Assembly: GCA_964497315.1 (NCBI GenBank)
Contig: CAZCCH010000003.1
Location: 23,346-87,345, forward strand
Reading direction: 5' to 3'
From: an uncultured Planctomycetia bacterium
GTDB taxonomy: Bacteria > Omnitrophota > Gorgyraeia > Taenaricolales > CAZCCH01
Length of the DNA stretch: 64,000 nucleotides
The notes under the pieces were generated by a model, which saw only the letters and a program-made list of their open reading frames with translations, made no database searches and had not been told where the DNA came from. The position numbers were made by a program, and so were the translations under genes. This document shows positions 3-17,075 of the stretch, piece after piece (the first letter of the stretch is position 1; every line of letters begins with the position of its first letter).

Positions 3-3000
3 ATAACTAAGAGCATCCCTCCTGCAGAAATAACGCCTGATAGAATTGCAGTGATAACTGAAAGCTTAAATCCTATGAGCAGAAGCACAAAACGTTTACG
101 CAAAGAAGCCGCAAGAACTCTTAGACAACTTCAGCCCACCCGCTTTACTGAAGAAAGATTACTTATAGGCAGAGAAGATGAACTTGACTGGCATACGGAA
201 AGTCTCGTTTCCCCTTACCATCAAGGCAGAATTTATGAAATATTAAAATATTATGATTTTGAAGATGGCAGGCATGAATCTATTCCTTTGGCATCTTTGA
301 TATTAAGAGAGGGCAGTGCATATTTTTTATCATATGAAGCAGGTCCAGGAACTAGTAATACTTTTGAGGTTACGAGAAGAGAAGGAGAAGCAGGTCCGAG
401 AGTTACTGTAGTTGAAGGATATATTACTAACTTAACAGATTTACCTTGGTTTAAAGAGATAGTTAACAGAAGAGAATGGGCGCTTCCCAATGAGGAAGTA
501 GCATATAGATTAGCATTGTTACTTACAAGCAAGACTTCTACTACACAGTTATCTATGGCTAGGCTTTATTCTTCTACGAACACTCATAGCGGTCATTATG
601 AAAATATTAACAGGCCTGAGGGTGCATCTCTTAAGATATTAACTGAAAGAATATCTAAATACCTATCTGGGCACAAGGTAGAAGATAGAAGCGTACTTGT
701 ACATAGGTTAAGATTCGAGTCACTTGGTTTATTAGATGCGAATTTAGAAGCTTTTGTTGTTGATGTTAGTCCTGTACCAGAATCTGCTGCAAGGTTTACT
801 GAATTTAGGGAATTAGTCGAAAAATGGGAAGAGAAATTAAAGACAAGAGATCATACAGGATTAGAAGCAGACCTTGCACTATTATCATCTTATGCCGATG
901 ATGATATGGCAGATAAGGCATTGCTAAAACGCGCCCACCCATTGCTTAATAGAATGGGCAAATTAAGAGAACGCGCTAAAACAAGAGCTGCCAAACTGGC
1001 TAAAGCACAAGCTATATCTGCATCTCCAGAGGGACAGATAATTACTCACCTCAAAGGAATGGCTAAGCATCATGGTAAAAAGCTGGATGCAGTTTGGTTA
1101 AATGCCAATGGAGCTTATGAGCGTTCTTTTGACCGTGGATTTAGCAGAGTAAAGGTTCCTGGTGATGTTGCACGACGTATAAAAAGAAATGGATTAAAGG
1201 CAGTTGCTATTTCAAAGCTAAGAACCTTAACAAAAGCTAAATATGCAAAAGATGTAATGTGGATTCTAAAAAACCTTAGCAGCGTTATGTCGCAGTTGCG
1301 CAAGCAACGCGAAGAAGGAGAAGGAATTAATGCTATGCGCCTCAATAATCTAGTTGTTTATGTTTCCGGATTTGATGGTGATGATGAGATTTATGGCATA
1401 GCCATTAAAACAGCACGATCTTATGCTGCAGGTGCTCGTATTCGTCTTGGGAGAATCCCTCTTTTAGATATTAAAAAGTGGAGGCCTGTTTCTGCTGCTG
1501 CAAGGTTTACTGAAGTATCGCAAACAGGAGCAATACTACCTTTACAAACAGCAGCTAATATAGTAGCAGGCGTACTAGAACAAGATAGACCAGCTAATAT
1601 ATACCTTTATACCAAACCCGGAAGAGAAATTTTGACTTTCCAAAGAAATGAAGATGGAGACATAATAGAGGTTTCTAGGGGTAGGCATGAAACAATCGAA
1701 GATCCTTCTACTGCAGTAAGTAGGCGTCTTTCAGAATTTAGAGGTGATGATTTTCTTGTTACTACAAAACCGGCATCCAAAGAGGCTGATGTTTCCAAAG
1801 TCGAAGAGACTGCAGTTTTGACTGTTTTTCCAGAATCTGTAGCTGCGCCAAAAACTTTAGACGACGCAAGGGAGTTAGTTAGTGAAACACTACAAGTTAT
1901 AGGAACAGGATATAGCGTTGGAGGTATTCTTAGTAGTTTAGAGGCATTTACAACTGACTTTGAGGTAGAAATAACAGAAAATGAAGTTAATGACTACATA
2001 GCTTCTCTTGCATCTTTTGAGGGAGATGGTTCTAGAGAAGGTTTTAATGAAATTATTGCTGACTTAAGAGCTTGCCTATTTCAACTTAGGGGATTTACTA
2101 AAAGGACTGCAATGCCTGCAAGATATTCAGAATTAACTTTTCCTGTTGAAATTAAAGGTATTTCTGCTGTGGGAGATGTTGCATTTACTTCTGATTTTGG
2201 ACATATACAAATTGTAAATGTTAAAGGACGCTTATCACTTCAGACGAACCCTGCTGTAAACGGAAGTATTTATAAATGGAGAGAAGATGATGAAGATGGC
2301 GGGTGGTATCTCACAAGCGGAACTGGAATAAAATATATAGGTGAAAGGGAAGCACTTGGTAAAAACATACGAAAAGCAATTGATAATAGAACTAAAGCCA
2401 GATATTCAGAACAGCAAAACCTACCACAAAGACTACACCAGCAAATAATGGATGTTTTGGGGCCTCAGGGTATTACACCTGCTGCTGGCTTGAGCCTAAT
2501 GAACCTGCCAATTCCGCGCTTAGAGCGTTTAGCTGACATTGTTAGCCCGAATTGGCGTGATAACCGTGATCTAGAGGTCCTCATAGCTAGACACAGATTG
2601 GATAATGGGCTTCAGGCCTATTTAGGCGATAGATTTTTTGCCCTTATACGAGACAATGAACTTATCGTCCGAGAGCAAAAATTTGATATGACAATTTCAG
2701 GTTCTGCGATGTATGACTATATAGTTGACGCTGACGAGATTGGTGTTGAAATTCCTGAATGGCTACATTATGAAGATCTTGCGATTGCAGAACCAGGACA
2801 GGTAGATAAAGAATTAGATGCATTAGATGATTTAGGGGAAGAAGGCGATAAATTGGGGCAAGCAGTACGTGACGCCAGGACACCCGGAGGCCCTGGTCAA
2901 GCAGAAGCAATTGTTGCAGCACACCTTGGAGCTAGAGTAAGAGGAGTATTTACGCTTGGACATGATGGAGAAGAATTACTGTTACGTATGAGAAGGGCAG

Positions 3001-6000
3001 GTGTTGACGTAACTAGAGTTGAACAAGATCCAAATAAGCGCACAGCCATGACCTTTGTTGTCTCAGGGGGTGGTAAGACTGCATTTGGTCATGAAATGGG
3101 CGCAGATGATAATTTGAATCTTAATAATTTAAGGCCTGAAGATTACCAGGTGCAGGTTTTCCATGTTGGAGGCCCTGCTTTAACACCAACATATATGAGG
3201 CAGCTGCCAAAGGTTTTTGCCAATGCTAAAAGAGAAGGTGCTATAACATCTATGGATATGGTAGCTGACCCATTATGGCTTTGGAAAGAACTTAAAGACA
3301 AAGGAGACGCTGCTAAAATTTGCAGAGATTTAGATGTGCTTATGCTGAGCACAAAGGAAGTAAAATATCATGCAGATTTACTAGAAGGCCAAAGTAAAGA
3401 AGAAGCAGAGCAACTTATGATAGAAGAAGCTGAAAAGATTGTAGAAGAGCTTCTTGCAATGGGCGTTAAGACAGTTGTCTATAAGCTGGGTGAGCATGGA
3501 GCTGTAGTTGGTTCAAGAGATAGCTTGATTTTTGAAGGTGCCGATCCCACAAGGACACCTATACATCAATATGCTGACCATTTTAAGATAGAGGCAACTG
3601 GTATGGGTGATGCTATGAGTGGTACTTTTGCTACTATGTTGGCAAGAACAGATAAACACGGAGAAGATGATACGCTAAATGGTGAGATGGCCTTTGGTAC
3701 TTTAGGACAACTGATGACAGTTTCCACAGCAGCTGCTTCTATTGCCGGTGAACAGGAGGGCGGCGGAGGTGACCTTGGCCACAGCCCTAAAGAAAAACTG
3801 CTTGAACGTCATATAGAATTGCAAGGCAAACCCGAATTCCGCCGTGCCATTGCCAGAATAGATGGCAAGACCACTAGAGACCAGGCAGGATCCAGGTATT
3901 CAGAGTCTCCCAGGCTCCCACTAGGAAGAGAGGATCGCGTTGTTGTACTTGGAAAAGAAATTTTTGTAGGAAGAATACCAGGAAGAGATATTGGACAGTG
4001 GTTACCTAGGGCATTAAGTGGGCCTGCTGGAAATGTTATGAGAATAATTATGAGGGAAACTCCACCAACCGCAACCGATGCAGATGGAGTTGAAATAGCC
4101 AGGAAGTTTAGTATTCACGATACAAATTGGTATTCTCCTGAGGTTACTGCAACTACAAAAGCAGATTCTACTCCAATAAACCCAATAGAGGCAGCAAAGC
4201 AAGTATTAAAGGAAGACAAGGGTTATGAGCTAAGAAAGGACAGGTTAACTCTTTATATAATAGGTCCTGCTCGCTTTGCAGAAGGCAAGCTCTTGCTTGT
4301 GGAAAATAATGATGATGTAGTAAATACAGTAAAGAGAAGTTTGGCGCGAAGAGGTGTTGAAGAAGAAGATATTATAGTAGTTAAAACCGGAGAAGATGCA
4401 CAACAACACCTACGAGGTGCAGATATTGCAGTAGCAATAGTTGATCTTACGCTTGATGGTGACATGACAGGTGAAGAAGTACTTGCTGAAGCGCTTGGCC
4501 GTAGCATTCCAAGAGTAGTATTTAGTGGGGATGTCGACATGGATCCTTCCAGGCGAAGAAGGGTAGAGGCCCTGGCGAAAGATGCTGTTTTTGCAAAACC
4601 TCGAGATTTTACAGCGGCTATAGATAAAGCCGTTGCTTTAGGTGCTGACTCACTCAAAAGAGCAAAATTCGTAACATCCCTTAGGGAGCTTGGCTATATT
4701 GATAGCGCTATGGATGTTTCTGAAAGGCCTGAGGATGAACCCTTTAGAAAAGCACTAGTGAGATTTCTGGCATCAGAAATTGGCCCAAGGATGGCCTCAA
4801 TGCCAGTATACCCTAAAAAGGTAAAGGGTGGTAGCGGTTGGTTTAGCCTTCCAGATGAGACAAAGCGATATTACGTATCATGGTCTAGGTCAGGTCAAAC
4901 CCCACAAAAAGAAGATGTTTTTAAGTTTTCAGTAGGCGCTGATCATAAATTATTCTCCAATGTACCTAAGACTGTATTTTTAGGTGGCATGACAACTATT
5001 AAGTCTACTGAGATAGAGATAGTTGAGGATGAGTCAGCCAGATTTTCAGAGGCTGATAAACTGAGACTTCACGCTGAGGATACTGCGTTTGGGTTGAATG
5101 GTCTCGATGTGCCAGAAATTCCCCTTCCAAAACTTCCAAGGCCACAAGAGGGAGGTGAAACTTGGGCTTCTATTAGTAATCCTCCTAAACACAGGATTTG
5201 GTCAACTTCTGGTAGTTTAGCGGGACGTAGCACAAGAACTGACGAAAAAGATCCCGCCAGATTTTCAGAAAAAAGCCTGAATGAAGCGCGGACGGCTGTC
5301 CGGGAAGCTTCGGAAGTCATTTCCACCGGTATGGATACTGTCTTAAAAAGAACAGGAGAAGTTGATCCTATAATATCAGTTCAGCCTGATGGTCGTATGA
5401 TATGGACTAAAAGTGGCCGGCAATTTGTAAAATCTGATGATGGGATATGGACAACCGTTATTGACAGAGATGGCACTAAGCAGCAGTTTAGGCCTAAGTC
5501 TAATGTAGGCAGGGCATTAAATCGAGTTGTTGCTAATTGGAGAGATGAGCTTAGAGGCACATCCCCGGCACCTGAGTACGGAGGTGCCCATGAACGTGAT
5601 CGCCGGGTAGCCGCTGCCAGATATACAGAAGCTAAAGCTAATGACATAGTTGAAATTACTAGTATTGAGGGCGAGCTGGATTTAATGACAGAAACTATGC
5701 AACAGATTAGAGGGCCACTTGCAAGATTATTAAAAGAAGAAGATATAGAAATTATAGTACGAAGCGACACAATTGCTTTTGTAGGCAACGCATTTTTAAA
5801 TTCTCTTTCTATAAATACCTGTCTATTTGCCTTGCGAGAATTTCATAAAGCTGTTGCAGAACGGGATTTTGCTACTGCAAGAAGAAAGCTTACTGATGCA
5901 CAAAGGAAGCTAGCAGAAGTTAAAAGAAGCCTACCCAAGAGCCCTAAAGCCCAAGAAGAAATAGTCACCCCTCTTGAAAGGGCAACTAGGAGTTTCGATG

Positions 6001-9000
6001 CTTATCTTAAAACTGCAACTTCACGTAGGCGCTTTAGAAATGCCAAACGAGCAAGATATTCAGAAGGTCCCATAGACCAAGCAGTAGAGGTATTGAGATT
6101 TAGAACCCTTCTATTTATAGGAACGGGCAAAAAAACCAAACCAGCCGGATTAGATTCCTTGATTAGTAAAACAGATGCTAAGCCACTTGTATGTTCAGCT
6201 GTCCCAGCTGAAATTATCCATGACATAGACCGAGAAACAATTCCAGGTCCGTCACCTAAACTACCTGTCTTAGTTTTTAAAGACCAGAGTACATTTGAAA
6301 GATACTATGATGCAGCAACTGAAACACATCCAGATATCATGATGATAATACTAATGCCTACGCAAGCTAGGGGAATAGATTTTGATATTGCTTATCCGCC
6401 TTCAGGAAAAAAGGCCCCTTATATTACTATTGCAAGCAAGGCTTCAGAAGCTGCCTGGGCGAATGCGATAGTGCGTCTTGCATCAACAATTGATGTGATG
6501 CGCCAAGATGGTATATTCGGTTCTCCTGATGCAACACAAGCCGAACAAGCTAGATATTCAGAAGCTACTCTATCTGATTTAGCTGATGGATACGACATGA
6601 CTGATGCTGATAGACGCTTGGTTAGTATGCTATCTTCAGAAAGCAATGAAGCAAGAGAAACAGCAATCAGTAGGTTTACTAGGGCTTTTGGCAATGTTAA
6701 GACAATAGAGGCTAATCGCAAGAATTTAGAAGGGATGCGTGTGGTACCAACTAAGGTAATAGGCTGGTTTCATTCATCAATTGATGATTTAGTTAGTTAT
6801 AGAGGATATCGCTGCCTTATGCCTTACCATCCATTACTTTTAGAAGTAGCAAAAGCAGCCCATAAATATAATGCAGAAGAAGGAACAGATTACCAGCCAT
6901 ATGCTACTGGTCCTTGGGTTTCAGCAAGTTATGCTGGCTTAAATCCAATAGCTGATGGAAGATATAAGCCATATATATATTGGTGCGATGGCTTTGGAAG
7001 ATCATTCTCTAATTTACCAGTTGAGTTAATAACTGAGATTAAAGATATAGCTAAGCGCGATGCCCTTATCGGTCCGCTAAAAACTAACATGACTGAAGCA
7101 CAAATAGAAGATGCCTTGCTTGGTAGATTATCAGCGGATCCTACATTTTTGATGGACCGTGTTAGGCTTGCATTAATTATAGGAGATGACTTAGAAGTAG
7201 CAGGTGCTAAATTATGGGCAAGTGAGCAGGTTTCTGTAAATAGGCTATTGGAAGGAACCCTTACTTTAGCTGGCGCTGCCCCTTTAAACGCCAGGGAAGA
7301 AGGACCGAAGCTATTAGTAAAAGTTATTCATAGACTAGTTGAAGGCAGAAAGAGTTTCTGTGGAGAGTTTGAAAAACCCGGACGTTCTGTTGGTGCAAAT
7401 CTAGTGGAATTTTTAAAAGGAGCAGAACCACGAGCTGATTTAGGTGGCAGGATAACAACTGTTTTAGAAAACTTTAGAATTGATAAGGACGGTTTTGAAG
7501 GCTTAAGAGAAGCTGTCCTTAAAGACCTTGCTCAATCAAATCCAACTGAGCAATATCCATTGAATGAAAGATTGAAAGAAGCTGCAGAATCAGTTCTTCT
7601 TGCAAGGCCCGAACTTGAGACTAGGGATGCACCGCCTTTCTTTGAAGGAGGGGAAGGAATAACTAATAATCCTGATGGTAGTGTTACCTTTAATAGTTCT
7701 ATACAAAATCAAAGAGGCAGAGTAGCATTTATGGTAGATTTCCCAGAGGCTAAACACTTCCAAAGAGGAAGAAGGCCTGTTGTATTTTTATTCCATGGTC
7801 TATCAGGACATAAGACAGAGCCTCATCTTCAAGAATTTGCTGAATGGTTTAGGCAAAGAGGTTTTGCAGTTGTAAGAATAGATTTTACTAATAACAAAAT
7901 AGGTGACAAACCTAATGAAAGCGGTGGAAACTTACAAGACTTTTCCATTGCAGGTGAGATGGGTGATTTTCTATCAGTAGCCGAACACCTAATAGAAACC
8001 ATGAGTGGTTGGCTTAATTTTTCTAGAACATATGTAGGTGGTCACAGCTATGGTGGTTTAGTAGCTAGAGGAGTAAGAGAATTAGCGCGTCTAAACTCTG
8101 AATCTGCGGTTGCTCGTTTAGGTATACAAGGTGTTATAGACATGTCTGGTATTGTATCTCCTGCGGGTTCTGCTAGGAAGGCTATACAAAGAGCCCTTAT
8201 ACAAAAGGTTCTTAGTGAGGGAAGAGCCCAAGACGAAGGAGAGGCAGGAAGCATTGTTTCATATGAAGATGTGCAAGAGACATACGAAACCTGGAGACGA
8301 GACCGCAACTTAGAATTATTTGCAGGTGGACAGCGCTTCTTTCTTAGAGATGATGATGGTGCAATAGATTGGGAACAATATGATGCTGTGGATGCTTTAT
8401 CAAAATTTCCTAAAGATGTTCCTTATGTATACATAATTGGAACAGAAGATGTTGGTGTTAGGTGTACAGGTCTTGAACAAGAGAACCAAGCAAGTAGGTT
8501 TATAGCTGCAGTTGAGAGCCGTCCTCTTGGAAAAGTATTGGAATTTGATATGGAACATGCGTATCCAGGAGAGTTATTGCCAGAGATAATTAGTGCAGCA
8601 GGTGAGGCATTGCGAATTCCTGAAGAGGCAAGGTATTCAGAAAGAATTGAGCCTCTTGAGGTCCTTACTGGAAAGCAGGCAATGGAGGTTATTCTTGGTC
8701 AGCTTGAGAAAACAGAAGAACTTTATATAACCTTAGGTTATGATAATCCAAACTTTAGGGTTAGAGAAGGTAGCATTGTATGCAATGGAAAAGGAGTTGA
8801 GGGATTCCCAGGGTCTGAGATCTTTAAACACTTAAGGGGAGTGCATAACTATTTTTATCAGTCTCAAATTAGACCAGGTGATAGCCCTACAAACTATCGT
8901 ACTGCATGGAGTCTTAACTCAATTGCATTGACTGCCTTAGAAAGAATAGATGCCTCTGAATTAGGAGCAGAACAAATAGAAATACTTAATATCCTAAAGG

Positions 9001-12000
9001 TAGCAGCTGTTAGCGTAGATAAGTTTTTTGGAGAGAGCTTTTCTGATCCTGCACGCTTTAGTGAACCAAAAGATGCAGAGGCTCTGGAGAAGAAAAGAGA
9101 AGGACTTAAAGCAGATGTAAAGGCAATAGCAGATGCAAGGGAAAGAGTACTAGAGGTATTAATGAAAAGCAAAACAGCGGATGGCAAACCTATGACAGAA
9201 GATATCACAGGGTTGATACCTCAATGCAAGTTAACTAAAGATTTACCCGGAGGCATAATGGCATTTCTTCTTTCTTTAGTTGGAAAAGAAAATAATGTAT
9301 TATTAGCTTACTCAGGAGGAAGTATACTATCATTAGTATATAACGAAGGAGCTTCTGATGGTGAATGGGATACTTCAACAGAATTACTTGATGAATACAA
9401 AGCTTCTACAGAAAAACCTATTCTTACAAGCACAAGAAGAGCTATATTAGCTAATCCAGATACAGAAATGTCAACAGATGATTTACTCAAAGGTGGTGCA
9501 ACTGAAGATGAGATTATAGCATGGGCAAGATATAACAGATTTAAGATGCGTCCTATAGGAGGTAATAATTACGCTGTAACAGGAAGATCACAGGAATCAG
9601 CACGCTTTACAGAAGGAACTGTTATAAAGAATGTAAGATTTTTTCCAAGCCAAGACTTGCCTACCATGCTTTTTGAGATATCAAGAGAAAATAGTTTTGA
9701 ATCTTTAGAAGTTCACTATAGCACAAAGAAGGCAGGAGGGAAATGGGGAGGTTATACTATCTTTAAGCCAACTATAGAAACAGGGGCATTCTGGAGGGTA
9801 GCCCATGTTACATTAAGCTCGCTATCAGCCAATTCTAAATGGGCATTCTTTTCCAGAGGAAAGACATTAATTTTATTAGCAGATGTCCCAGGTGATGAAG
9901 CGCAGGTAAAAGAACAGCTTGACAGTATGCTTAAGGGCGTACGACTAGGAGACCCTTATGAAATACTAGAACCATCATTAGTAGAAGAAATACCTCCTGA
10001 TAGTAAACAAGCTAGGTTTACAGAAACCACCATACCATTAAAGGAATTAATGCAAAAAGAAGATCTTGAAAGAGGCGCTTATTTTGTAACACAAGACCTG
10101 TCTCCAGAGCTAATAGGTATTGCTATAGAACTACTTCAAGAACCTAAGTTAGCAATTCTAGCAGAAGAAGGTGCTACTTTTACAGCAAAACATGAACCAG
10201 GAGTTGCGAATGATACCATAACATCTATTTCAATTGATGTACCCCTTACCAATAGACTTGTTAAGGCAGCTGCTTCTGGAATCACTCTTCATAGATTAAA
10301 GATTTCTCAACATATAGACCCTGATACAGGTATGAACCACTTAGAATTTGCAATAGCAAATCCAGCAGCAGAGACCTTTCCTGAATTTGCAGGTTTTACA
10401 GCTGTTGATGATGATGCAGCTCTTTTAGGGTTAGCAAAGGGTTTTTCTAATGTCATGAGAGCAGATAGAGATATTAGGTCTTTGCTTGCTGAAACTGTAA
10501 CAGAAGAAGAAACCGAAGATGTAATACCATTCGAGGAAAGAGCCCGTGAGGCAGGAGTTGAACTTGTTGAGCCAGAAAAATGGACTGATATTACAGAAGA
10601 GTTAAAGACTATTGCAAGGACAATTATAGAAAACGTTGGTCTAAGACTTTCCCGACCAAAACTTCTTTTAAGTTCTACAAGGTCAATGGTGGAACAACCG
10701 AGTTTGAGCGATGGTGAGGCAATTTCTAATGTAGTTATCCTTGCCTATTTTGCTAATGGAATACCGTGCGATTTTAGTGCAGAGCAACAAAAGGATACTA
10801 ACTGGATAGCATTTTCCGCAGTTGATCAGCGTTCTCCTTATGAGGTTGGTAGGGTTTTAATGCCTCAAGGTCTTTCCGGTCTTACTGCATTTACACAAGC
10901 CGCATTTGCAATAGCAGAGCATAATGCGTTTTCACCTGAGGAAGAACAGGCAAGGTTTACAGAGAGTCGACAATATGTTATGCCTGAAGGTGAAGCTAGG
11001 GCACTTACTGAAGATGTGGACACAGGAGGAGTAATAAGGAAATATGGAGATGGAATATTGACTCCTAGTGAAATAGACGAACTTGAAAAAGTAGAAAAAG
11101 CAGCAGTGTTTGATATTAAATTCCTAAGAGAGGGCAGTGCAGAAGAAATGTTAGTTTTTCATTGCTATGGCTACCTTCATAATTCCAGATTAGGGACACC
11201 AAAAGGTGGTGTGGCTATAGGAGATGAGAAGGCCGTAACTTCAGAGAAGATTAAGAAAAAGGCCTTTTTGATGACCATCAAAGATGCCCTTGCTGGTTTC
11301 TTCCATGCGGGATATCCATTTGGCCTAGGCGGGGCTAAATTTGGTATAGTGATGCCTGAAGGCATTAAGATATCAGATTTAACGGATATAGAATTGGAAA
11401 GACTAGCAAGAACATGGACAAAGGCACTTTATGAAAGAAACTTAATAGGACCAGATATATATGTTCCTGCGACTGACATAGGTTTAGATGAAAAAAGAGG
11501 GCCAAAATTTATGGCCTGGGTTGCAAGTGAATACAGAAATATAGTAGACGAAGATCACCCTGAAGTAGTTACTAGCAAAACCGTAGTAGGAGATGATTTT
11601 GGGAATATTGACCCTACCGGTGGAATAGAAGGAAAGGTAGGGGCAACGAAGCATGGCGGATTGTATGTTATCGAAGAAGTATTAAAAGCAGAGAATCTTC
11701 AAAGATTATCAAAACGATTTCGTGCGCTCGAAGGTCTTACTCCAGGGTTAGTAGGTAAGGAGGTTGCTGTTCAAGGTGCTGGCAAGGTAGCCTTAATTGC
11801 TGAATTGCTTCAGCAGACGAGCGAGGCGACTGTAAAAGCATGGAGCGATGAAGATGGCGGGTATTATGAAGAAAAAGGTTTAAATGTGGCTGAATTGTGT
11901 AGACCAGAAGGATTTGTTGCTGCTGGAGAATTTTTAAGGACAAAACCAGGCTTTCCTTTAACTAATTCTATTACCAATGTGGCATTATTGAAACTACCTG

Positions 12001-13733
12001 TAGATATATTGGTCTTAGGGGCAACAGAAGGCCAGATTACAAAAGAAAACGCAGGCGAGGTTCAAGCAAAAATAGTCCTCTGTCTTGCCAATGATCCAAT
12101 TACTGCAGAGGCAGAAGAGATTCTAACTGAAAGAGGCATATTGGTCATACCTGATTTTGTGGCAAACATAGGAGCAGTAAGCGTTTCTTGTTTTGAGATG
12201 TTACAAAATAAAGAAGGAAGAGCATGGACTTTAAATGAGACAAGAGGAAGACTAAAACATCTTATGCTAAGGAATCTCGGTGAGGTAATGGCTATTTCTG
12301 AAGAGGAAAATATAGGCTTAACTGCTGCTGGCTACAGGTTGGTTTTAAAGAGATGGAAGGAAGGCAATAGGGCTAAAGCTCCGGTAAGCCAGATAGAGAT
12401 TGGTAAATTGCCAGACTATTCCATGGCCGCCAGATTTACAGAGGGGACCATTACAGAGCACATTGCTTTTCTACAGAGACAAGCACGCAGTAGAGACGAA
12501 AGCAAAAAAAGTGCTATTGGATTTGGAATATCATATTATAAACCTTCACCTGCAACGCAACGGGTGCTTTTAGCAGATAGTGTTAGACATAGCAGACCTG
12601 GTATGCATGATGGTAGGCTTCAGGAAGAACCCAGATATGCAGTTTGGAAAGAAGGACATGAAATTTACCTAGTAGGCGATATTACGCATGCTGAGCATCA
12701 GCCAAACGAAAGATTGGTGCAACGTTTAAAGGACGCTAATCTTAGAGGTATTTGTATTACTCGCCAAGCACTTCTTGATAAAAGCGTACAACCAGCTCTA
12801 AAATGGATGCTTGGAAATATCGCAAGGGCTTCAAAGGATTTAGACGGTCATGGTCAGCAAGTAACTATGCCAAAGAAGGAGCCAAAAGTAACAATTGAAC
12901 TTGCCCTTGTAGACAAAGAAGATTTTTATTTGTTTGTAAGTAAAGTTAAGGATTCTCATTCCACCAGATTTACAGAAACGACTAAGCTATCGACAGACAC
13001 ACCATCTATAAGTCCAACAGATGCATTCCTTGAATTAAGGAGAGATTTCCCTGATGCAACATTAGCAAAAGGACCATTTAAGATAGTACTTCCAGCAGCA
13101 ATGTTTGCTGAAAATGCAGACTCTGAAACAATAGGTAGCTCTTTAGCTGAAATAGCAGAAGTTGCTGCCGCAAGATATGCAACAGCAATTACTGTAGAGG
13201 TAGTCACTGAGGAGAATTTATTTAATCCAAGAGCCCATAGACTAGCAGAGAAAATAAACGCTAGCTTACATCAAGGAAGAGACATCTCAGGGCTTCTTAC
13301 TCAAGTAAGAAATGAAACAACCTTTACCCTTGGAAGTCAAGCACACCTTGAGAGCCTACTAAACCAACTAAGCCTAGGTCTTAATGTCCAATGGAAGGGT
13401 ATTGCATGGGATGATTTAAGAATAAATGAAACAAACACAGATAGACTAATAACAGCAGTTGATTTGATTTTTAGCTTAATAGAGCTTTATGCAGGAAAGA
13501 ATACCCGTAGCTTAGTACCAGAATTAATGGAAGGTGTTAGGCAAAGGTTAGCTGCCTTAGATATAACAGGCTATGATGATGATTCAATATTAAGCCTTGT
13601 ATCAGATGACTTGGAAGCAGCTATAAATGCAGCAAGAAAACTACGTAAACTCCTACCTTCTGCTGAAAAAGCTAGCTTTGGCAGATACTTCATGAGGCTA
13701 CAACAGTCTCTAGAATTCAGAAGGCAGATTTAA
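3..13733 (+). CDS. Giant multidomain protein, 5'-partial. The ORF is open to window position 3 with no in-frame stop upstream. It is at least 4577 aa with the first in-window start candidate a GTG at 51. It is punctuated by about 20 copies of [AST]-R-[FY]-[ST]-E.
   Basis: The reading frame is uninterrupted from the window edge to the TAA at 13731-13733, which is impossible by chance at this AT content. Codon usage is protein-like. Embedded kinase, receiver, hydrolase and dehydrogenase signatures are listed as separate features. A C/G-rich hairpin terminator follows. Confidence 0.8.
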   Translation: MTKSIPPAEITPDRIAVITESLNPMSRSTKRLRKEAARTLRQLQPTRFTEERLLIGREDELDWHTESLVSPYHQGRIYEILKYYDFEDGRHESIPLASLILREGSAYFLSYEAGPGTSNTFEVTRREGEAGPRVTVVEGYITNLTDLPWFKEIVNRREWALPNEEVAYRLALLLTSKTSTTQLSMARLYSSTNTHSGHYENINRPEGASLKILTERISKYLSGHKVEDRSVLVHRLRFESLGLLDANLEAFVVDVSPVPESAARFTEFRELVEKWEEKLKTRDHTGLEADLALLSSYADDDMADKALLKRAHPLLNRMGKLRERAKTRAAKLAKAQAISASPEGQIITHLKGMAKHHGKKLDAVWLNANGAYERSFDRGFSRVKVPGDVARRIKRNGLKAVAISKLRTLTKAKYAKDVMWILKNLSSVMSQLRKQREEGEGINAMRLNNLVVYVSGFDGDDEIYGIAIKTARSYAAGARIRLGRIPLLDIKKWRPVSAAARFTEVSQTGAILPLQTAANIVAGVLEQDRPANIYLYTKPGREILTFQRNEDGDIIEVSRGRHETIEDPSTAVSRRLSEFRGDDFLVTTKPASKEADVSKVEETAVLTVFPESVAAPKTLDDARELVSETLQVIGTGYSVGGILSSLEAFTTDFEVEITENEVNDYIASLASFEGDGSREGFNEIIADLRACLFQLRGFTKRTAMPARYSELTFPVEIKGISAVGDVAFTSDFGHIQIVNVKGRLSLQTNPAVNGSIYKWREDDEDGGWYLTSGTGIKYIGEREALGKNIRKAIDNRTKARYSEQQNLPQRLHQQIMDVLGPQGITPAAGLSLMNLPIPRLERLADIVSPNWRDNRDLEVLIARHRLDNGLQAYLGDRFFALIRDNELIVREQKFDMTISGSAMYDYIVDADEIGVEIPEWLHYEDLAIAEPGQVDKELDALDDLGEEGDKLGQAVRDARTPGGPGQAEAIVAAHLGARVRGVFTLGHDGEELLLRMRRAGVDVTRVEQDPNKRTAMTFVVSGGGKTAFGHEMGADDNLNLNNLRPEDYQVQVFHVGGPALTPTYMRQLPKVFANAKREGAITSMDMVADPLWLWKELKDKGDAAKICRDLDVLMLSTKEVKYHADLLEGQSKEEAEQLMIEEAEKIVEELLAMGVKTVVYKLGEHGAVVGSRDSLIFEGADPTRTPIHQYADHFKIEATGMGDAMSGTFATMLARTDKHGEDDTLNGEMAFGTLGQLMTVSTAAASIAGEQEGGGGDLGHSPKEKLLERHIELQGKPEFRRAIARIDGKTTRDQAGSRYSESPRLPLGREDRVVVLGKEIFVGRIPGRDIGQWLPRALSGPAGNVMRIIMRETPPTATDADGVEIARKFSIHDTNWYSPEVTATTKADSTPINPIEAAKQVLKEDKGYELRKDRLTLYIIGPARFAEGKLLLVENNDDVVNTVKRSLARRGVEEEDIIVVKTGEDAQQHLRGADIAVAIVDLTLDGDMTGEEVLAEALGRSIPRVVFSGDVDMDPSRRRRVEALAKDAVFAKPRDFTAAIDKAVALGADSLKRAKFVTSLRELGYIDSAMDVSERPEDEPFRKALVRFLASEIGPRMASMPVYPKKVKGGSGWFSLPDETKRYYVSWSRSGQTPQKEDVFKFSVGADHKLFSNVPKTVFLGGMTTIKSTEIEIVEDESARFSEADKLRLHAEDTAFGLNGLDVPEIPLPKLPRPQEGGETWASISNPPKHRIWSTSGSLAGRSTRTDEKDPARFSEKSLNEARTAVREASEVISTGMDTVLKRTGEVDPIISVQPDGRMIWTKSGRQFVKSDDGIWTTVIDRDGTKQQFRPKSNVGRALNRVVANWRDELRGTSPAPEYGGAHERDRRVAAARYTEAKANDIVEITSIEGELDLMTETMQQIRGPLARLLKEEDIEIIVRSDTIAFVGNAFLNSLSINTCLFALREFHKAVAERDFATARRKLTDAQRKLAEVKRSLPKSPKAQEEIVTPLERATRSFDAYLKTATSRRRFRNAKRARYSEGPIDQAVEVLRFRTLLFIGTGKKTKPAGLDSLISKTDAKPLVCSAVPAEIIHDIDRETIPGPSPKLPVLVFKDQSTFERYYDAATETHPDIMMIILMPTQARGIDFDIAYPPSGKKAPYITIASKASEAAWANAIVRLASTIDVMRQDGIFGSPDATQAEQARYSEATLSDLADGYDMTDADRRLVSMLSSESNEARETAISRFTRAFGNVKTIEANRKNLEGMRVVPTKVIGWFHSSIDDLVSYRGYRCLMPYHPLLLEVAKAAHKYNAEEGTDYQPYATGPWVSASYAGLNPIADGRYKPYIYWCDGFGRSFSNLPVELITEIKDIAKRDALIGPLKTNMTEAQIEDALLGRLSADPTFLMDRVRLALIIGDDLEVAGAKLWASEQVSVNRLLEGTLTLAGAAPLNAREEGPKLLVKVIHRLVEGRKSFCGEFEKPGRSVGANLVEFLKGAEPRADLGGRITTVLENFRIDKDGFEGLREAVLKDLAQSNPTEQYPLNERLKEAAESVLLARPELETRDAPPFFEGGEGITNNPDGSVTFNSSIQNQRGRVAFMVDFPEAKHFQRGRRPVVFLFHGLSGHKTEPHLQEFAEWFRQRGFAVVRIDFTNNKIGDKPNESGGNLQDFSIAGEMGDFLSVAEHLIETMSGWLNFSRTYVGGHSYGGLVARGVRELARLNSESAVARLGIQGVIDMSGIVSPAGSARKAIQRALIQKVLSEGRAQDEGEAGSIVSYEDVQETYETWRRDRNLELFAGGQRFFLRDDDGAIDWEQYDAVDALSKFPKDVPYVYIIGTEDVGVRCTGLEQENQASRFIAAVESRPLGKVLEFDMEHAYPGELLPEIISAAGEALRIPEEARYSERIEPLEVLTGKQAMEVILGQLEKTEELYITLGYDNPNFRVREGSIVCNGKGVEGFPGSEIFKHLRGVHNYFYQSQIRPGDSPTNYRTAWSLNSIALTALERIDASELGAEQIEILNILKVAAVSVDKFFGESFSDPARFSEPKDAEALEKKREGLKADVKAIADARERVLEVLMKSKTADGKPMTEDITGLIPQCKLTKDLPGGIMAFLLSLVGKENNVLLAYSGGSILSLVYNEGASDGEWDTSTELLDEYKASTEKPILTSTRRAILANPDTEMSTDDLLKGGATEDEIIAWARYNRFKMRPIGGNNYAVTGRSQESARFTEGTVIKNVRFFPSQDLPTMLFEISRENSFESLEVHYSTKKAGGKWGGYTIFKPTIETGAFWRVAHVTLSSLSANSKWAFFSRGKTLILLADVPGDEAQVKEQLDSMLKGVRLGDPYEILEPSLVEEIPPDSKQARFTETTIPLKELMQKEDLERGAYFVTQDLSPELIGIAIELLQEPKLAILAEEGATFTAKHEPGVANDTITSISIDVPLTNRLVKAAASGITLHRLKISQHIDPDTGMNHLEFAIANPAAETFPEFAGFTAVDDDAALLGLAKGFSNVMRADRDIRSLLAETVTEEETEDVIPFEERAREAGVELVEPEKWTDITEELKTIARTIIENVGLRLSRPKLLLSSTRSMVEQPSLSDGEAISNVVILAYFANGIPCDFSAEQQKDTNWIAFSAVDQRSPYEVGRVLMPQGLSGLTAFTQAAFAIAEHNAFSPEEEQARFTESRQYVMPEGEARALTEDVDTGGVIRKYGDGILTPSEIDELEKVEKAAVFDIKFLREGSAEEMLVFHCYGYLHNSRLGTPKGGVAIGDEKAVTSEKIKKKAFLMTIKDALAGFFHAGYPFGLGGAKFGIVMPEGIKISDLTDIELERLARTWTKALYERNLIGPDIYVPATDIGLDEKRGPKFMAWVASEYRNIVDEDHPEVVTSKTVVGDDFGNIDPTGGIEGKVGATKHGGLYVIEEVLKAENLQRLSKRFRALEGLTPGLVGKEVAVQGAGKVALIAELLQQTSEATVKAWSDEDGGYYEEKGLNVAELCRPEGFVAAGEFLRTKPGFPLTNSITNVALLKLPVDILVLGATEGQITKENAGEVQAKIVLCLANDPITAEAEEILTERGILVIPDFVANIGAVSVSCFEMLQNKEGRAWTLNETRGRLKHLMLRNLGEVMAISEEENIGLTAAGYRLVLKRWKEGNRAKAPVSQIEIGKLPDYSMAARFTEGTITEHIAFLQRQARSRDESKKSAIGFGISYYKPSPATQRVLLADSVRHSRPGMHDGRLQEEPRYAVWKEGHEIYLVGDITHAEHQPNERLVQRLKDANLRGICITRQALLDKSVQPALKWMLGNIARASKDLDGHGQQVTMPKKEPKVTIELALVDKEDFYLFVSKVKDSHSTRFTETTKLSTDTPSISPTDAFLELRRDFPDATLAKGPFKIVLPAAMFAENADSETIGSSLAEIAEVAAARYATAITVEVVTEENLFNPRAHRLAEKINASLHQGRDISGLLTQVRNETTFTLGSQAHLESLLNQLSLGLNVQWKGIAWDDLRINETNTDRLITAVDLIFSLIELYAGKNTRSLVPELMEGVRQRLAALDITGYDDDSILSLVSDDLEAAINAARKLRKLLPSAEKASFGRYFMRLQQSLEFRRQI
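2900..3700 (+). other. PfkB/ribokinase-family carbohydrate-kinase-like module inside the giant ORF
   Basis: Translation reads ...GVDVTRVEQDPNKRTAMTFVV...VVYKLGEHGAVVG...IEATGMGDAMSGTFA... The DTxGAGD-type anion-hole motif (ATGMGDAM, nt ~3598-3621) and the overall ribokinase-fold order of motifs are present. Confidence 0.55.
4246..4660 (+). other. CheY-like receiver (REC) module inside the giant ORF
   Basis: Translation reads KLLLVENNDDVV...ADIAVAIVDLTLDGDMTGEEVLAEAL...IPRVVFSGDVD...VFAKP. An acidic pair, a candidate phospho-acceptor Asp and a conserved Lys lie at REC-typical spacing. Confidence 0.5.
7770..8575 (+). other. alpha/beta-hydrolase (esterase/lipase-like) module inside the giant ORF
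   Basis: Translation reads RPVVFLFHGLSGH...YVGGHSYGGLVA (GxSxG nucleophile elbow at nt ~8040-8060)...IIGTEDVGV...FDMEHAYPGE. A Ser/Asp/His triad is present in canonical order. Confidence 0.6.
11200..12270 (+). other. Glu/Leu/Phe/Val amino-acid dehydrogenase-like module inside the giant ORF
   Basis: Translation reads GYPFGLGGAKFGI (GGxK catalytic-Lys loop, nt ~11326-11349)...YVPATDIG...PTGGIEGKVGAT...GKEVAVQGAGKVA (Rossmann GxGxxA/G)...DILVLGAT...LCLANDPIT...ILVIPDFVANIGAV. The motif order matches the GDH/LeuDH superfamily. Confidence 0.6.
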
Positions 13734-13935: not shown

Positions 13936-16900
13936 ATGTTTAGGCAAAAACTTATGAATTCACATTTATTTAGAATAATATCACTAGTAATATTAATGGC
14001 CTTTACAGGTTCAATAGCATATCCAGGGCTTAGCTTTGCTGAGCCTTTTTCTTTTGAAGACACTTTAAGGCCAAAAAGTACAGCAGAAAATGAAGTAGCA
14101 AGGCAGGAGCTATTAAATGCTTTTGGTGTAGAAGAAGACGTAGAAGAAATAGCAGAAGAACCAAAGATTACACAGTTTCCGCTTTCTCCACAAGATAAAA
14201 CCCTTGGTATGGTTGCTAGATTTTCAGAGATGCAAAGGCTATGGGCTTCCCCTGATAGCGGCGAAGACGTATTCTATGATGAAAAGACAAGGGGTTTACG
14301 TGTTCACAAAAAAAGTTTAAGAGCAGGCGTTGCACGCCTAACCAGGCTTGGTGGAGTAAAACAGATACCTTTATTTTCACTTCTTGCTGATTTTATAAGA
14401 GAGCATGCAAGTGAATTTACACTAACTCCCGATGGAACAAGTTTAGAAAGGGTTACCGCAGACACTCCAGACTTTGGGTATAAACTTTATCTGCAGGCTA
14501 CCAAAGACGATGCTGCAGCAGTTTTAAGAGATTTGTTACCCTATTTATTTGAACCTAAGGGTTTTGATGAGGATATATTTTTCAGGTGTGTAGTTAATGA
14601 GGATCAACTAGCTCAAGTACCTGACGGTACGCTTATTACAATATACCCACCAGGCAATAGCATGATAGAACAAAGGTTAAATGCATTCACAATAGCCAAG
14701 GCCTTAGATGACCTTTTCCTAAACGCAAATTTAGAGATGGATCCTTCCGCAGGGCTACCCGCGCAACCATACAGAAAGGTAGTTGGAGAGAGTGGAAGAG
14801 TCCGTGCAAAATGGGATTCGATGACTGAGGAAGCTGCAGATGCCTTAGTCCAAATACGTACTGAAGCCGCTTTTTTAGACGCCAGGAACAAGTCGCCGCT
14901 TAACAATGTAGAAGTGGCTACTCCCCTGGAAGATTATTTGGCCGAATTTGGAGCTGAGCAACTGGCAACTTTCTTGCCTATATTACCATCTGAAGATGGT
15001 GAGGAGGTCGCCAGGTTTACAGAGAGTAATAAAACAGCAGAAGCAGTAGTAGAGGATGACGAGGACATTTCTGGTTTACCTTCATACACTGAAAGCGAAT
15101 GGCAGATAGCAACCGAAGCTTTGGGCAGAGAGCCAGTACTAAGCCGAGCAGAAGATGAAATAGGAATGATGATGACCATGGTGGCGCAGCATGGCTGGAC
15201 CTTGGAAGAGGCGGCACGCTATTACGCAAAGGCAGAACAAGAAGCAGCCACTCGCGAAAGCTTATCAGATACCAACGCCTTGCCAGAATGGCAGGATGAG
15301 GAAACCACGTCGACATACACTGAAGACGAATGGCGTACAGTAACCACCGAATTCATGGAAGTTCTAGGCCGAGCACCAATAGTGAGTTGGAGAGAAGATG
15401 AGATGTGGCAAGTTAAGCAATATGCGCAGGAAGGGAAAACTGGGCTAAGGGCTGCAGCGCGCAAATACGCAGAGGAAGAACTAGCATATAGGAGACGCGG
15501 CATGCAGACAGAGCGAGATGAGATGGGAGAAGTCGCCAGGTTTACAGAGGCGGTGGCGATAGATGCAAATGGTGCCCACCCTCTCATCGCTATAGCTAAA
15601 CACGCCAAAAGCAATGGAGACTTTTTTGCTGCACGGGATGGAGACTTTTTTACTGGACAGGGAAGAATAATGAAAGTTACAAATAGTACTAGCACAGCCA
15701 CGCGATTTTGGCTTGCAAGGGCAAAAGGTGTTAAATATGGCGTTAAGATAAATGCAACCATGGAAGGATATCAGGCGCATACGAGATGGTATTTCGATCA
15801 TGATGATACTCTTTATGTGCGAATGGGGCCCCGCGATTACGGAGAGTCTGTAGGAGATCGGAGGCGCATAGCAGCAGCCAGGAAAATTTGCGAAGCAGCA
15901 GCAGCTGCAGAGGTCAGTCAGGCACGCTACGCGGAAGCATCTGAAGTTCCGCCAGCTGAGCCTGTTATGACAGTTATGAAAGAAGCTGGCCTTGGTACAA
16001 GAGTAGTTAGGATACCTGATGAGTTTGTACCTTTAGCCACAGACAAAACTCCTGTGAGAGTACTAAAAGAAGCTGGTTTTGCTACGAGATTGGTAAGTAA
16101 AACACCTGCAAAGCCTACTGATGTAGAAGATGCCGATGCAACCCGCTTCTCTGAAGCTACAACCTTACCACAAGTTAATAGGATTACAGCCAGTAGAATT
16201 ACCCAAGCCACAACTGGTCTAACAGTAGATGAGCTAGTAGGAATAATCAACTCTGGAGTTGGTTTACAAGCAGCAATTGAAGACATAGCAAACATGAGTG
16301 AGTTTGACATAGACTTAGCCTTGCCAGAAGTAAGAAAACAAGTAAATGATGCTGCATGGGGTAACTTAATAGATACTATTGAGAACCAAGCACAAACCGA
16401 CCTCACACAATTAAAACCTCGAATAGCACGCAGCCCATGGGGTAGTAATTATACACGGCTTTCAGAAGCTGCAAGCAAAGTGCAAGGAGGTAATTTCTTT
16501 AGCGTTGTACTTAAATCAAGCCTTGGCAGCATACTTGATGACAGGGCCATATTAAGAGAAAGGGCCGCTGAATATGACATTACGCTACAAGATATTACTG
16601 TTGCAACAATAGATAACCTTGAAGCTGCTGTCCAGCAAATGGCTTCTGAATTAAACCAAAAAGGTACCCAAAGAGCATGCTTTTTCTTAGGTGCAATACC
16701 TAAAGAATTACAAGATAGAGTTACAAAGTTAGCAGAACAACTAAGAGAGCAAAACCCAAATATAATAAACTTAAACATTATATTTGCACCAACACCTTTA
16801 GAAAATCCAATAACCGCCCAACCTGATGTAGTATCTTACATGCAGGCATTTACAGAAGGTTTCTCAAGCAATCAGCTAGTTACACTCTTAACTAGAGGAT

Positions 16901-16983
16901 TGCGCTTGCCTAGTGGCTTATTGGGTGAATTAGGTCAGGTCATGAGACAATTAGACCTTGCTGAAATACTAAGAAACATCTAA
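13936..16983 (+). CDS. Secreted repeat protein (about 1015 aa from the ATG at 13936). It has a signal peptide, 6 copies of the same [AST]-R-[FY]-[STA]-E motif and internal tandem repeats.
   Basis: The track ORF runs 13849..16983. I moved the start to MFRQKLMNSHLFRIISLVILMAFTGSIAYPGLSFA, which gives a typical N-region, H-region and AxA signal peptide. A purine-rich stretch, aggggggg, lies upstream. The motif copies and composition match the giant ORF, and the gene has its own hairpin terminator. Confidence 0.7.
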   Translation: MFRQKLMNSHLFRIISLVILMAFTGSIAYPGLSFAEPFSFEDTLRPKSTAENEVARQELLNAFGVEEDVEEIAEEPKITQFPLSPQDKTLGMVARFSEMQRLWASPDSGEDVFYDEKTRGLRVHKKSLRAGVARLTRLGGVKQIPLFSLLADFIREHASEFTLTPDGTSLERVTADTPDFGYKLYLQATKDDAAAVLRDLLPYLFEPKGFDEDIFFRCVVNEDQLAQVPDGTLITIYPPGNSMIEQRLNAFTIAKALDDLFLNANLEMDPSAGLPAQPYRKVVGESGRVRAKWDSMTEEAADALVQIRTEAAFLDARNKSPLNNVEVATPLEDYLAEFGAEQLATFLPILPSEDGEEVARFTESNKTAEAVVEDDEDISGLPSYTESEWQIATEALGREPVLSRAEDEIGMMMTMVAQHGWTLEEAARYYAKAEQEAATRESLSDTNALPEWQDEETTSTYTEDEWRTVTTEFMEVLGRAPIVSWREDEMWQVKQYAQEGKTGLRAAARKYAEEELAYRRRGMQTERDEMGEVARFTEAVAIDANGAHPLIAIAKHAKSNGDFFAARDGDFFTGQGRIMKVTNSTSTATRFWLARAKGVKYGVKINATMEGYQAHTRWYFDHDDTLYVRMGPRDYGESVGDRRRIAAARKICEAAAAAEVSQARYAEASEVPPAEPVMTVMKEAGLGTRVVRIPDEFVPLATDKTPVRVLKEAGFATRLVSKTPAKPTDVEDADATRFSEATTLPQVNRITASRITQATTGLTVDELVGIINSGVGLQAAIEDIANMSEFDIDLALPEVRKQVNDAAWGNLIDTIENQAQTDLTQLKPRIARSPWGSNYTRLSEAASKVQGGNFFSVVLKSSLGSILDDRAILRERAAEYDITLQDITVATIDNLEAAVQQMASELNQKGTQRACFFLGAIPKELQDRVTKLAEQLREQNPNIINLNIIFAPTPLENPITAQPDVVSYMQAFTEGFSSNQLVTLLTRGLRLPSGLLGELGQVMRQLDLAEILRNI
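15085..15546 (+). repeat. Tandem in-frame duplication, 2 x 231 nt (77 aa), inside the secreted partner gene
   Basis: Unit 1 is YTESEWQIATEALGREPVLS..AEDE...AARYYAKAEQEAA. Unit 2 is YTEDEWRTVTTEFMEVLGRAPIVSWREDE...AARKYAEEELA. The units start at 15085 and 15316. A second shorter 87-nt x 2 repeat (KEAG[LF][GA]TR[VL]V...) starts at 15979 and 16066. Confidence 0.6.
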
Positions 16984-17013: not shown

Positions 17014-17046
17014 ACCCTCTCCCCAAAAGGGAGGGGGTTTTTTTAC
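17014..17046 (+). terminator. Rho-independent terminator after the secreted partner gene
   Basis: The 10-bp stem accctctccc / gggagggggt has a caaaa loop and a T8 run. The hairpin sequence closely resembles the one at 13750. Confidence 0.65.
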
Positions 17047-17075
17047 TTGCATTCCACCCCTCTTTTAACTATAAT
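17047..17075 (+). promoter_or_regulatory. sigma70-like promoter (TTGCAT-17-TATAAT)
   Basis: ttgcat lies at 17047-17052, the spacer is 17 nt, and tataat lies at 17070-17075. This is about 45 nt upstream of a strong RBS (aggagg) and the ATG at 17121. Confidence 0.5.

Follow-up and report, generated by a model that had tools for sequence, protein, structure and literature searches.

A lineage-specific pentapeptide separator delimits the modules of a giant multi-enzyme protein from a probable Omnitrophota bacterium and may mark the cleavage sites of a bacterial polyprotein

Introduction

Does a giant bacterial gene that joins unrelated enzymes yield a single chain or many products? This question, left open by two studies of Omnitrophota giant genes (bioRxiv 10.1101/2023.11.21.568195; bioRxiv 10.64898/2026.06.07.730766), is raised by gene A, a very long gene at the 5' end of a stretch of contig CAZCCH010000003.1 (64,000 nucleotides, hereafter the window), and by gene B, which follows it on the same strand. 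Protein A consists of a predicted signal peptide, a putative pro-region with the box FSFEDTLRP and 22 mutually unrelated modules, and the pentapeptide A-R-[F/Y]-[S/T]-E recurs throughout it, ending every module except the last. These separators are, with high confidence, real, module-delimiting and conserved at the level of the peptide, while the chance that they are the cleavage sites of an exported polyprotein is put at about even. What is new is the separator code, as the class of multi-enzyme long proteins itself has already been described. The code makes the question of one chain or many products testable and, if cleavage is confirmed, would reveal a cellular counterpart of viral polyprotein expression that delivers fixed enzyme sets outside the cell.

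Extent and assembly support of gene A

Frame 3 of the + strand stays open for 4,576 codons, beginning at window position 3 and closing with the TAA at 13731-13733, while the remaining two + frames hold 395 and 511 stops across the same interval (3-13733). When residues 1680-2877 of the window open reading frame (ORF) were used for an exhaustive HMMER search, a 100%-identical protein of 5,272 amino acids (aa) emerged, which led to the contig L003 (JGI metagenome contig 3300009374 Ga0118720_1000239, 90.5 kb), the source of the full-length gene. Window position 1 equals L003 12087, which places 2,146 nt (716 codons) of gene A upstream of the window, and full-length residue numbers are those of the window ORF plus 716. 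The gene starts with the ATG at L003 9941, preceded by AAGGAGAGAAAG with an AAGGAG-type ribosome-binding site, and the ORF ends at 25819, so that the complete gene A comprises 15,879 nt and 5,292 aa. An earlier reading of the letters alone (hereafter the sequence-only reading) had described one giant uninterrupted gene open at the window edge and had advised extending it upstream to its true start, and both points are borne out by L003.

Assemblies of two other samples in ENA contain window 4825-17443 with 1 mismatch and 13232-17730 with 0; these independent assemblies cover the 3' 8.9 kb of gene A together with its junction to gene B. The 5' 4.8 kb of the window is backed only by contigs identical to the window. 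The population carrying gene A is present in at least 8 samples, one of which is described as taken from an oxygen-deficient marine water column (PMC12220078). The gene and its end are as follows.

3..13733, + strand: gene A, 3' 13.7 kb, open frame, with the full gene taken from L003
13748..13782, + strand: terminator-like hairpin and T-run just past the gene A stop

Pentapeptide separators of protein A

The strict form R[FY][ST]E has 18 copies in the part of protein A inside the window, against 0.22 expected from shuffling (shuffle maximum 4), and the permissive form [ASTVG]R[FYL][STA]E occurs 21 times in the full protein, against 0.32 expected from shuffles, and 6 times in protein B. A slightly narrower pattern gives 24 matches, all in A and B, with 0 elsewhere in the six frames of the 64-kb window and none in the rest of L003. 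The separators in the window part of gene A are the following.

138..152, + strand: separator TRFTE
789..803, + strand: separator ARFTE, within a 20-nt exact repeat shared with 1495-1514
1500..1514, + strand: separator ARFTE
2118..2132, + strand: separator ARYSE
2397..2411, + strand: separator ARYSE
3891..3905, + strand: separator SRYSE
4269..4283, + strand: separator variant ARFAE, directly ahead of the receiver domain
5037..5051, + strand: separator ARFSE
5256..5270, + strand: separator ARFSE
5616..5630, + strand: separator ARYTE
6051..6065, + strand: separator ARYSE
6549..6563, + strand: separator ARYSE
8628..8642, + strand: separator ARYSE, in the unstructured tail of the esterase model
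9051..9065, + strand: separator ARFSE, with Ser encoded by AGT, not TCA
9600..9614, + strand: separator ARFTE
10011..10025, + strand: separator ARFTE
10950..10964, + strand: separator ARFTE, the residue after it matching about residue 1-2 of free-standing glutamate dehydrogenases (GDHs)
12429..12443, + strand: separator ARFTE, about 13 aa past the native-like C-terminus of the GDH-like module
12963..12977, + strand: last separator, TRFTE, ahead of a 251-aa C-terminal module without known homologue

The 15-nt units coding for the separators constitute the strongest direct DNA repeats of the region (families D1-D6 and D8). Their codons vary: AGA, AGG and CGC all occur for Arg, TCA and AGT for Ser, and GCA, GCC and GCT for Ala, and this synonymous variation points to selection on the peptide, not on the DNA. 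Compared with the whole proteins, the 12 residues preceding the separators are enriched in proline (7.4% vs 4.4%) and depleted in leucine (4.9% vs 9.4%).

A 17-nt exact duplicate encoding LREGSA, family D13, falls outside the separator system and has these two copies.

304..320, + strand: 17-nt exact duplicate, copy 1
11125..11141, + strand: 17-nt exact duplicate, copy 2

The sequence-only reading had seen in it a hint of internal recombination or duplication. The repeat is present at both positions, while its reading as such a trace is not supported, as it consists of two isolated copies whose flanks are unrelated, a repeated 17-mer arises in 3% of codon-shuffled versions of gene A (mildly unusual), and the segments that separate the motifs show no paralogy. 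The duplicate is incidental and gives no evidence of duplication.

Recognised domains and their borders

Five of the 22 modules can be recognised, namely HEAT repeats, a PfkB sugar kinase, a probable CheY-like receiver, an alpha/beta-hydrolase and a GDH-like enzyme, while the other 17 have no known relatives. The HEAT repeats (HEAT_2) fill one module upstream of the window; the remaining four lie within it.

2850..3662, + strand: PfkB-family sugar-kinase domain (window aa 950-1220; Pfam), between the separators at 2397 and 3891
4287..4640, + strand: probable CheY-like receiver domain (window aa ~1429-1546; PDB matches), with the DD, D, S and K-P hallmarks read from the sequence
7686..8600, + strand: alpha/beta-hydrolase module with the nucleophile elbow GHSYGG (Pfam, model and Foldseek), ending 10 aa ahead of the next separator
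10992..12377, + strand: Glu/Leu/Phe/Val-dehydrogenase module with both Pfam domains (Pfam and PDB alignment)

The PfkB domain is matched by Pfam with E=2.3e-17 and 63.7 bits (cut-off 25.8). The receiver is missing from the Pfam table at E<=0.01 and is a probable assignment from PDB matches (E=3e-4 to 1e-3), 7 of 8 of which are response-regulator or receiver-domain proteins, with the acceptor aspartate aligned in the best one. A match to VanR-B has a value of 0.005. The alpha/beta-hydrolase (hereafter the esterase module) scores 26.0 bits with Abhydrolase_6, just under the cut-off of 26.3; its AlphaFold model, built on a 15-sequence alignment, reaches a predicted local distance difference test (pLDDT) value of 89.5 and a predicted template modelling score of 0.90, and the nearest structures found by Foldseek are PET46, feruloyl/cinnamoyl esterases and a thermostable lipase (E ~1e-14 to 1e-12), which assigns the modelled module a carboxylesterase/lipase-like fold. 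The dehydrogenase module exceeds the Pfam cut-offs for both ELFV_dehydrog_N (E=4e-14, 52.9 bits) and ELFV_dehydrog (E=2e-42, 145.8 bits), and its best PDB match is Pyrococcus GDH (3e-45). As aligned with 1gtm, it keeps GGAK, MTIK, PATD and QGAGKV, which carry the catalytic lysine, the MTxK lysine, the PAxD aspartate and the Rossmann motif, so that the GGxK and Rossmann motifs named in the sequence-only reading are both retained. The arginine of GGIR is replaced, and the substrate and activity of the module are uncertain for that reason. The claim that unrelated enzyme-like modules are separated by stretches lacking any known signature is correct, and the reported lack of adhesin or RTX repeats agrees with Pfam, where no adhesin, RTX or Ig-type repeats were found in protein A, tandem single-domain arrays being likewise absent.

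None of the 21 separators falls inside one of the five recognised domains (P=0.0015), and in three of these five a separator stands no more than 12 aa ahead of the domain start (P=0.0012). The receiver begins immediately behind ARFAE. At the start of the GDH-like module, query residue 10 aligns with residue 11 of 3k92 and query residue 21 with residue 22 of 7mfm. At the other end, its fold stops about 13 aa before the following ARFTE, while in the esterase model the last helix stops at residue 317 and is followed by the coil LRIPEEARYS, with pLDDT<50 at the separator. Wherever a recognisable domain fixes the module end (esterase and GDH), some 10-13 unstructured residues therefore precede the separator. 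Separators mark native-like domain termini.

BLASTP and phmmer detected no paralogy between modules of protein A, nor between the C-terminal modules of A and B; Pfam at E<=1 returned only noise for ten uncharacterised modules, and scans against NCBIfam and PHROGs added no module identities. Among 5.8 billion proteins, the first 800 aa of the window ORF matched only themselves, as did gene B. Scans of GTDB genomes with the N-terminal 706 aa and with the esterase module, and two scans of JGI metagenomes, yielded no relatives. A DNA-pattern match to the leader in L006 was rejected as chance, lying inside a P-type ATPase, and a single-sequence AlphaFold prediction across three modules and two separators was uninformative (mean pLDDT 34.6). 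As a side observation, the G+C content of genes A and B is 0.39-0.46, compared with 0.33-0.40 in the remaining window.

Gene B and the leaders

Gene B encodes a protein of 1,015 aa of the same build, with six separators of the same type, two of which are variants.

13936..16983, + strand: gene B, 1,015 aa from the ATG at 13936 (mechanical ORF from the GTG at 13849), with predicted signal peptide, FSFEDTLRP box and 6 separators
14215..14229, + strand: separator ARFSE
15010..15024, + strand: separator ARFTE
15535..15549, + strand: separator ARFTE
15922..15936, + strand: separator variant ARYAE
16141..16155, + strand: separator TRFSE
16453..16467, + strand: separator variant TRLSE
17014..17048, + strand: terminator-like hairpin and T-run after gene B

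The leader of A (MFSQKFTNSYLCKILSITILMAFIGSLIAPELSYA-GAFSFEDTLRP) and that of B (MFRQKLMNSHLFRIISLVILMAFTGSIAYPGLSFA-EPFSFEDTLRP) are near-identical and paralogous, and they are the only hydrophobic stretches of the two proteins apart from one non-transmembrane stretch in the Rossmann fold of the GDH-like module. Both are predicted to be Sec signal peptides followed by a conserved pro-region.

Side by side with this, a '(T)LR(P)' box stands behind the signal peptide in A (L003 9941-10250), in B (window 13936-14230), in the related proteins P0005, P0008, P0009, P0012 and P0014, and at L004 from 11484 onwards, and it is common to lineages with different separators. In lineages with separators of the form xGxEE, the first separator comes within 3-6 residues of the box, and a conserved stretch of ~15-20 aa and another separator come next. 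From its sequence, the '(T)LR(P)' region looks like a conserved pro-region.

Most related long proteins carry separators of their own

The esterase module is the sole module with homologues. It has 66 matches, many of which are long proteins of 1,700-7,011 aa, most with a signal-peptide-like leader followed by the '(T)LR(P)' box, and two of them (P0003 and P0012) are annotated as Candidatus Omnitrophota. The most frequent 4-mers belong to the motif xG[LQAVM]EE in P0008-P0012, P0014, P0016, P0017 and P0027, and to ARMAD instead in P0053, the two motifs being over-represented 5-30 times in these relatives. The esterase envelope starts no more than 8 residues from the motif end (-2 to +8) in 9 related long proteins and ends 8-20 residues ahead of the next motif in 6 relatives, while the Pfam domains of the relatives (PP2C, HD, cupin and 2-hydroxyacid dehydrogenase) never straddle a motif. 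The three separator types share the common denominator small-[R/G]-hydrophobic-x-[E/D]. The separator type is uniform at each locus, as A and B share one type and both P0014 and its downstream 1,416-aa neighbour carry xGxEE, and at related loci long modular genes tend to occur in tandem. As read from these sequences, the architecture is conserved across lineages while the separator sequence differs, and in most of the long relatives xG[LQAVM]EE or ARMAD frames the modules as A-R-[F/Y]-[S/T]-E does in A.

Several observations on these loci stand apart from the comparison. The separators at aa 1929-2060 of P0010 belong to a C-terminal domain with a homologue in P0014, and several xGxEE proteins (C-termini of P0011, P0014 and P0017) end with a last separator and only 5-12 further residues, as in ...SGLEE-FAQQLGTTAIAA, ...TGMEE-LSTAA and ...SGLEE-SLERSRAA. 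Genes of toxin-antitoxin type (AbiEii; RHH+PIN; PemK) adjoin long modular genes in four of the loci examined (L003 7950-9364; L004 16286-16943; L008 7533-8167; L005 5537-6105), which may be due to chance or may point to mobile or variable regions. At L008 15992-17492 there is a second very long gene (6,251 aa) with many WD40/beta-propeller Pfam domains, 8 kb downstream of the modular, esterase-bearing P0070.

A putative polyprotein of a probable Omnitrophota member

We propose that A and B may be Sec-exported 'beads-on-a-string' precursors, made by an uncultivated bacterium of oxygen-deficient marine water, in which the pentapeptides would be the recognition sites of a lineage-specific endopeptidase acting in trans. 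The exported precursor, cut into individual proteins, would be a bacterial polyprotein, and a single gene would supply its fixed set of enzymes outside the cytoplasm of its producer. This reading, in which the two products are exported polyproteins of a probable Omnitrophota member, has in our judgement as good a chance of being right as of being wrong, and the putative role of the separators as cleavage sites is about equally balanced. A separator that is uniform within a genome and different between lineages implies a co-evolving trans-acting reader, and the sharing of one separator by both genes of a locus (A and B; P0014 and its neighbour) is what a single genome-encoded reader would be expected to produce. 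Cleavage is also supported by the position of the separators in disordered spacers at native-like termini. Free-standing GDHs are hexamers and work as such, so that the GDH-like module is hard to reconcile with a position in the middle of a 5,292-aa chain unless it is excised. Cleavage after the acidic residue and cleavage after the hydrophobic residue would both fit the common denominator of the separators.

Speculatively, the released enzymes would work on, or within, a host or prey cell, by analogy with cultured Omnitrophota, which are reported to lead a predatory or episymbiotic life (bioRxiv 10.1101/2023.11.21.568195; PMC12583861). Action in or on another cell is suggested by the need of the kinase and the dehydrogenase for ATP and NAD(P), which the periplasm lacks. 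The full proposal, that is a virus-like polyprotein system in bacteria, probably Omnitrophota, with a lineage-specific five-residue code, a co-evolving protease and cytoplasm-type enzymes (kinases, dehydrogenases, phosphatases and esterases) released into or onto a host or prey, is tentative, and we rate it somewhat below an even chance.

Several observations weigh against cleavage or against parts of the proposal. Searches of A, B, the window and the 10 kb upstream detected neither a gene nor a domain of a protease, and no protease (or secretion gene) recurs among the neighbours at five related loci; a locus in another part of the genome could encode it. The only module common to the relatives resembles, by Foldseek, a carboxylesterase and not a peptidase. 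P0003 and P0004 are multi-module relatives without a detectable separator. Separators of P0010 follow one another at intervals of only 30-50 aa in its C-terminal region, and their counterparts in P0014 are degenerate, so that a separator need not bound an independently folding unit. The assignment of the source bacterium to Omnitrophota, which is probable, is indirect and draws on esterase relatives, the only ones that bear that name.

The best of the other explanations, which we consider rather unlikely, is an uncut, tethered multi-enzyme scaffold, where the pentapeptides would be hinge caps, docking sites for partners or anchors, or modification sites such as Ser/Thr phosphorylation sites. 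The lack of a detected protease is in its favour, and one preprint treats such proteins as intact membrane-associated or periplasmic assemblies (bioRxiv 10.64898/2026.06.07.730766). Position 4 of the separator, which is S/T here and E in the xGxEE lineages, is compatible with a phosphosite and its phosphomimic, and the 30-50-aa spacing in P0010 resembles a repeated structural feature. A universal phosphosite is, however, unlikely, since the ARMAD lineage has A/S at position 4. A scaffold also fits poorly with a motif that sits in an unstructured tail, at the native-like termini of enzymes whose free-standing relatives are oligomeric, and a sequence that is uniform in the genome and variable between lineages would still need a trans-acting reader.

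It is quite improbable that the separators serve primarily as DNA microhomologies (~15-20 nt) for the shuffling, loss and gain of modules, with the peptide as a by-product. They are indeed the strongest direct repeats in the gene, including the 20-nt exact pair, and the module content varies greatly among relatives while the esterase module moves around. The free synonymous variation (TCA vs AGT, AGR vs CGC) nevertheless indicates conservation of the peptide, 15 nt is short for homologous recombination, and such an effect could be a secondary consequence of polyprotein cleavage.

Still less probable is a reading in which the alpha/beta-hydrolase module does the processing, as a serine peptidase that works both in cis and in trans in the manner of viral polyprotein proteases. 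At three loci only one of the tandem genes has the module (A and not B; P0014 and not its neighbour; P0053 and not the sampled part of its neighbour), there are weak matches to Peptidase_S9 and Hydrolase_4 (S33), and the GxSxGG elbow is of a kind also found in S9 peptidases. The 50 listed structural neighbours are, in contrast, almost all carboxylesterases, feruloyl esterases, lipases and PET hydrolases, with 0 endopeptidases among them, and the apparent ubiquity of the module reflects ascertainment, as all loci were found through it.

An artefact of assembly or annotation, in which a chimeric contig or a lost stop had merged several genes and for which the short-read metagenome origin of the data and the 5' 4.8 kb found only in window-identical contigs might speak, has a next to negligible probability, as 15.9 kb run without a stop (against 395 and 511 in the other frames of the window part), frameshifts would destroy the 21 in-frame separators, the same architecture exists at related loci elsewhere, and the misassembly that the sequence-only reading had allowed for is unlikely because assemblies of other samples reproduce the region (the 3' 8.9 kb with 0-1 mismatch) and the population is present in at least 8 samples.

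If the polyprotein reading is true, the separators would be the missing cleavage points of the Omnitrophota giant proteins. The separator code predicts exact peptide termini that could be sought in proteomes, gives a rule for splitting long proteins for structure prediction, and offers through its sequence a handle for a protease search by co-variation with the specificity pocket.

Comparison with known systems

The sequence-only reading held that the combination of modules matches no known family, which is not upheld, since a class of Omnitrophota multi-enzyme long proteins is known from preprints of 2023 and 2026. These proteins contain many enzyme Pfam domains, with sugar kinases, receivers and HEAT scaffolds being typical (bioRxiv 10.64898/2026.06.07.730766; bioRxiv 10.1101/2023.11.21.568195). 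In the catalogue of Nielsen and Lui (2026), 94% have a signal peptide and/or transmembrane helices, and the topology with a signal peptide only accounts for 8.6% (bioRxiv 10.64898/2026.06.07.730766). Protein A resembles their class 1, the 'multi-enzyme metabolic cluster', in being a single very long ORF with distinct Pfam domains, none dominant by copy number, in its predicted N-terminal signal peptide, and in that its closest named esterase relatives are Omnitrophota proteins; by its sequence, gene A fits this class in architecture. West-Roberts et al. (2023) stated that the cleavage points were unknown, which prevented module-wise analysis (bioRxiv 10.1101/2023.11.21.568195). A recurrent separator is reported in neither Omnitrophota preprint, the text of that of 2026 containing none of 'cleav', 'motif' and 'linker', and a literature search on separator motifs, bacterial polyproteins and Omnitrophota polyproteins found nothing relevant.

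The giants of Archaeovorin or dockerin type (West-Roberts 2023) differ from A, as they reach 30-147 kaa (thousand amino acids) against 5.3 kaa and have many transmembrane helices and C39, S8, SecA-like or dockerin domains. Protein A has no transmembrane helices, and no Pfam matches to C39, S8, SecA or dockerin at E<=0.01.

Outside this group, functional analogies only can be drawn. The MARTX toxins of Vibrio contain RTX-type repeats and a built-in C80 cysteine protease cutting after leucine, and leave the cell by type I secretion. Like A, they are large secreted precursors with several unrelated effector enzymes, those of MARTX being released by cleavage and acting in the cytoplasm of another cell. 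Unlike them, A has a Sec-type leader, a five-residue consensus and no built-in protease that was found, and no RTX, glycine-rich-repeat, C80 or C-terminal T1SS-signal matches were obtained in A with Pfam and NCBIfam. Among viruses, 3C-like proteases cut after Q/E with S/T at P2, and the phage T4 protease gp21 cuts at L/I-x-E. Viral and phage polyproteins and the substrates of prohead proteases resemble A in short consensus sites repeated at the borders of unrelated units and, if cleavage were to occur after the acidic residue, the A separator would likewise present a hydrophobic P3, a small or polar P2 and glutamate at P1. They differ from A, which is chromosomal and surrounded by housekeeping genes, has an exported product and yielded no protease. 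Among bacteria, precursors with repeated cleavage sites on either side of each unit include the gingipain/HagA precursors of Porphyromonas gingivalis, which combine a protease with related adhesin domains, and the multi-core precursors of ribosomally synthesised and post-translationally modified peptides such as cyanobactin PatE, whose cores of ~8 aa are cut at the flanking repeated recognition sequences. The N-terminal site of PatE, which we take to be G(L/V)E(A/P)S, resembles the xGLEE separators. The cores of such precursors are peptides of ~8 aa, in contrast to enzymes of 70-690 aa in A.

Other genes of the window

Across the window (1-64000), nearly all ORFs of at least 150 aa are on the + strand, the few on the - strand being nested in + strand genes, and the GC skew is positive in each 2-kb bin. 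A phage origin, considered on account of the one-strand genes and the low GC, was rejected, as a megablast of 24 kb against phage records was empty and the neighbours are cellular housekeeping genes. The match of window 18807-20132 to phrog_27398 ('tail protein', E=3e-137) was likewise set aside, since Pfam identifies a xanthine/uracil permease and the label looks misleading.

Directly 3' of gene B lies a 72-aa ORF with two hydrophobic helices (window 17121-17339, + strand), to which the precomputed annotation assigns PF26391 (MamI, a magnetosome family) on three independent contigs; no further magnetosome genes were found in the 64-kb window. Two housekeeping genes contain inteins that bear LAGLIDADG homing-endonuclease domains. 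In the ribonucleotide reductase large subunit (window 26851-30459), Intein_splicing and LAGLIDADG_3 lie inside Ribonuc_red_lgC, while GTP cyclohydrolase I (516 aa, window 49493-51043) carries an intein with LAGLIDADG_3. Window 32786-35955 encodes two tandem ATP-grasp paralogues similar to D-Ala-D-Ala ligase, followed by a radical SAM enzyme similar to lysine-2,3-aminomutase, which together may be a cassette for the ligation of small peptides or beta-amino acids.

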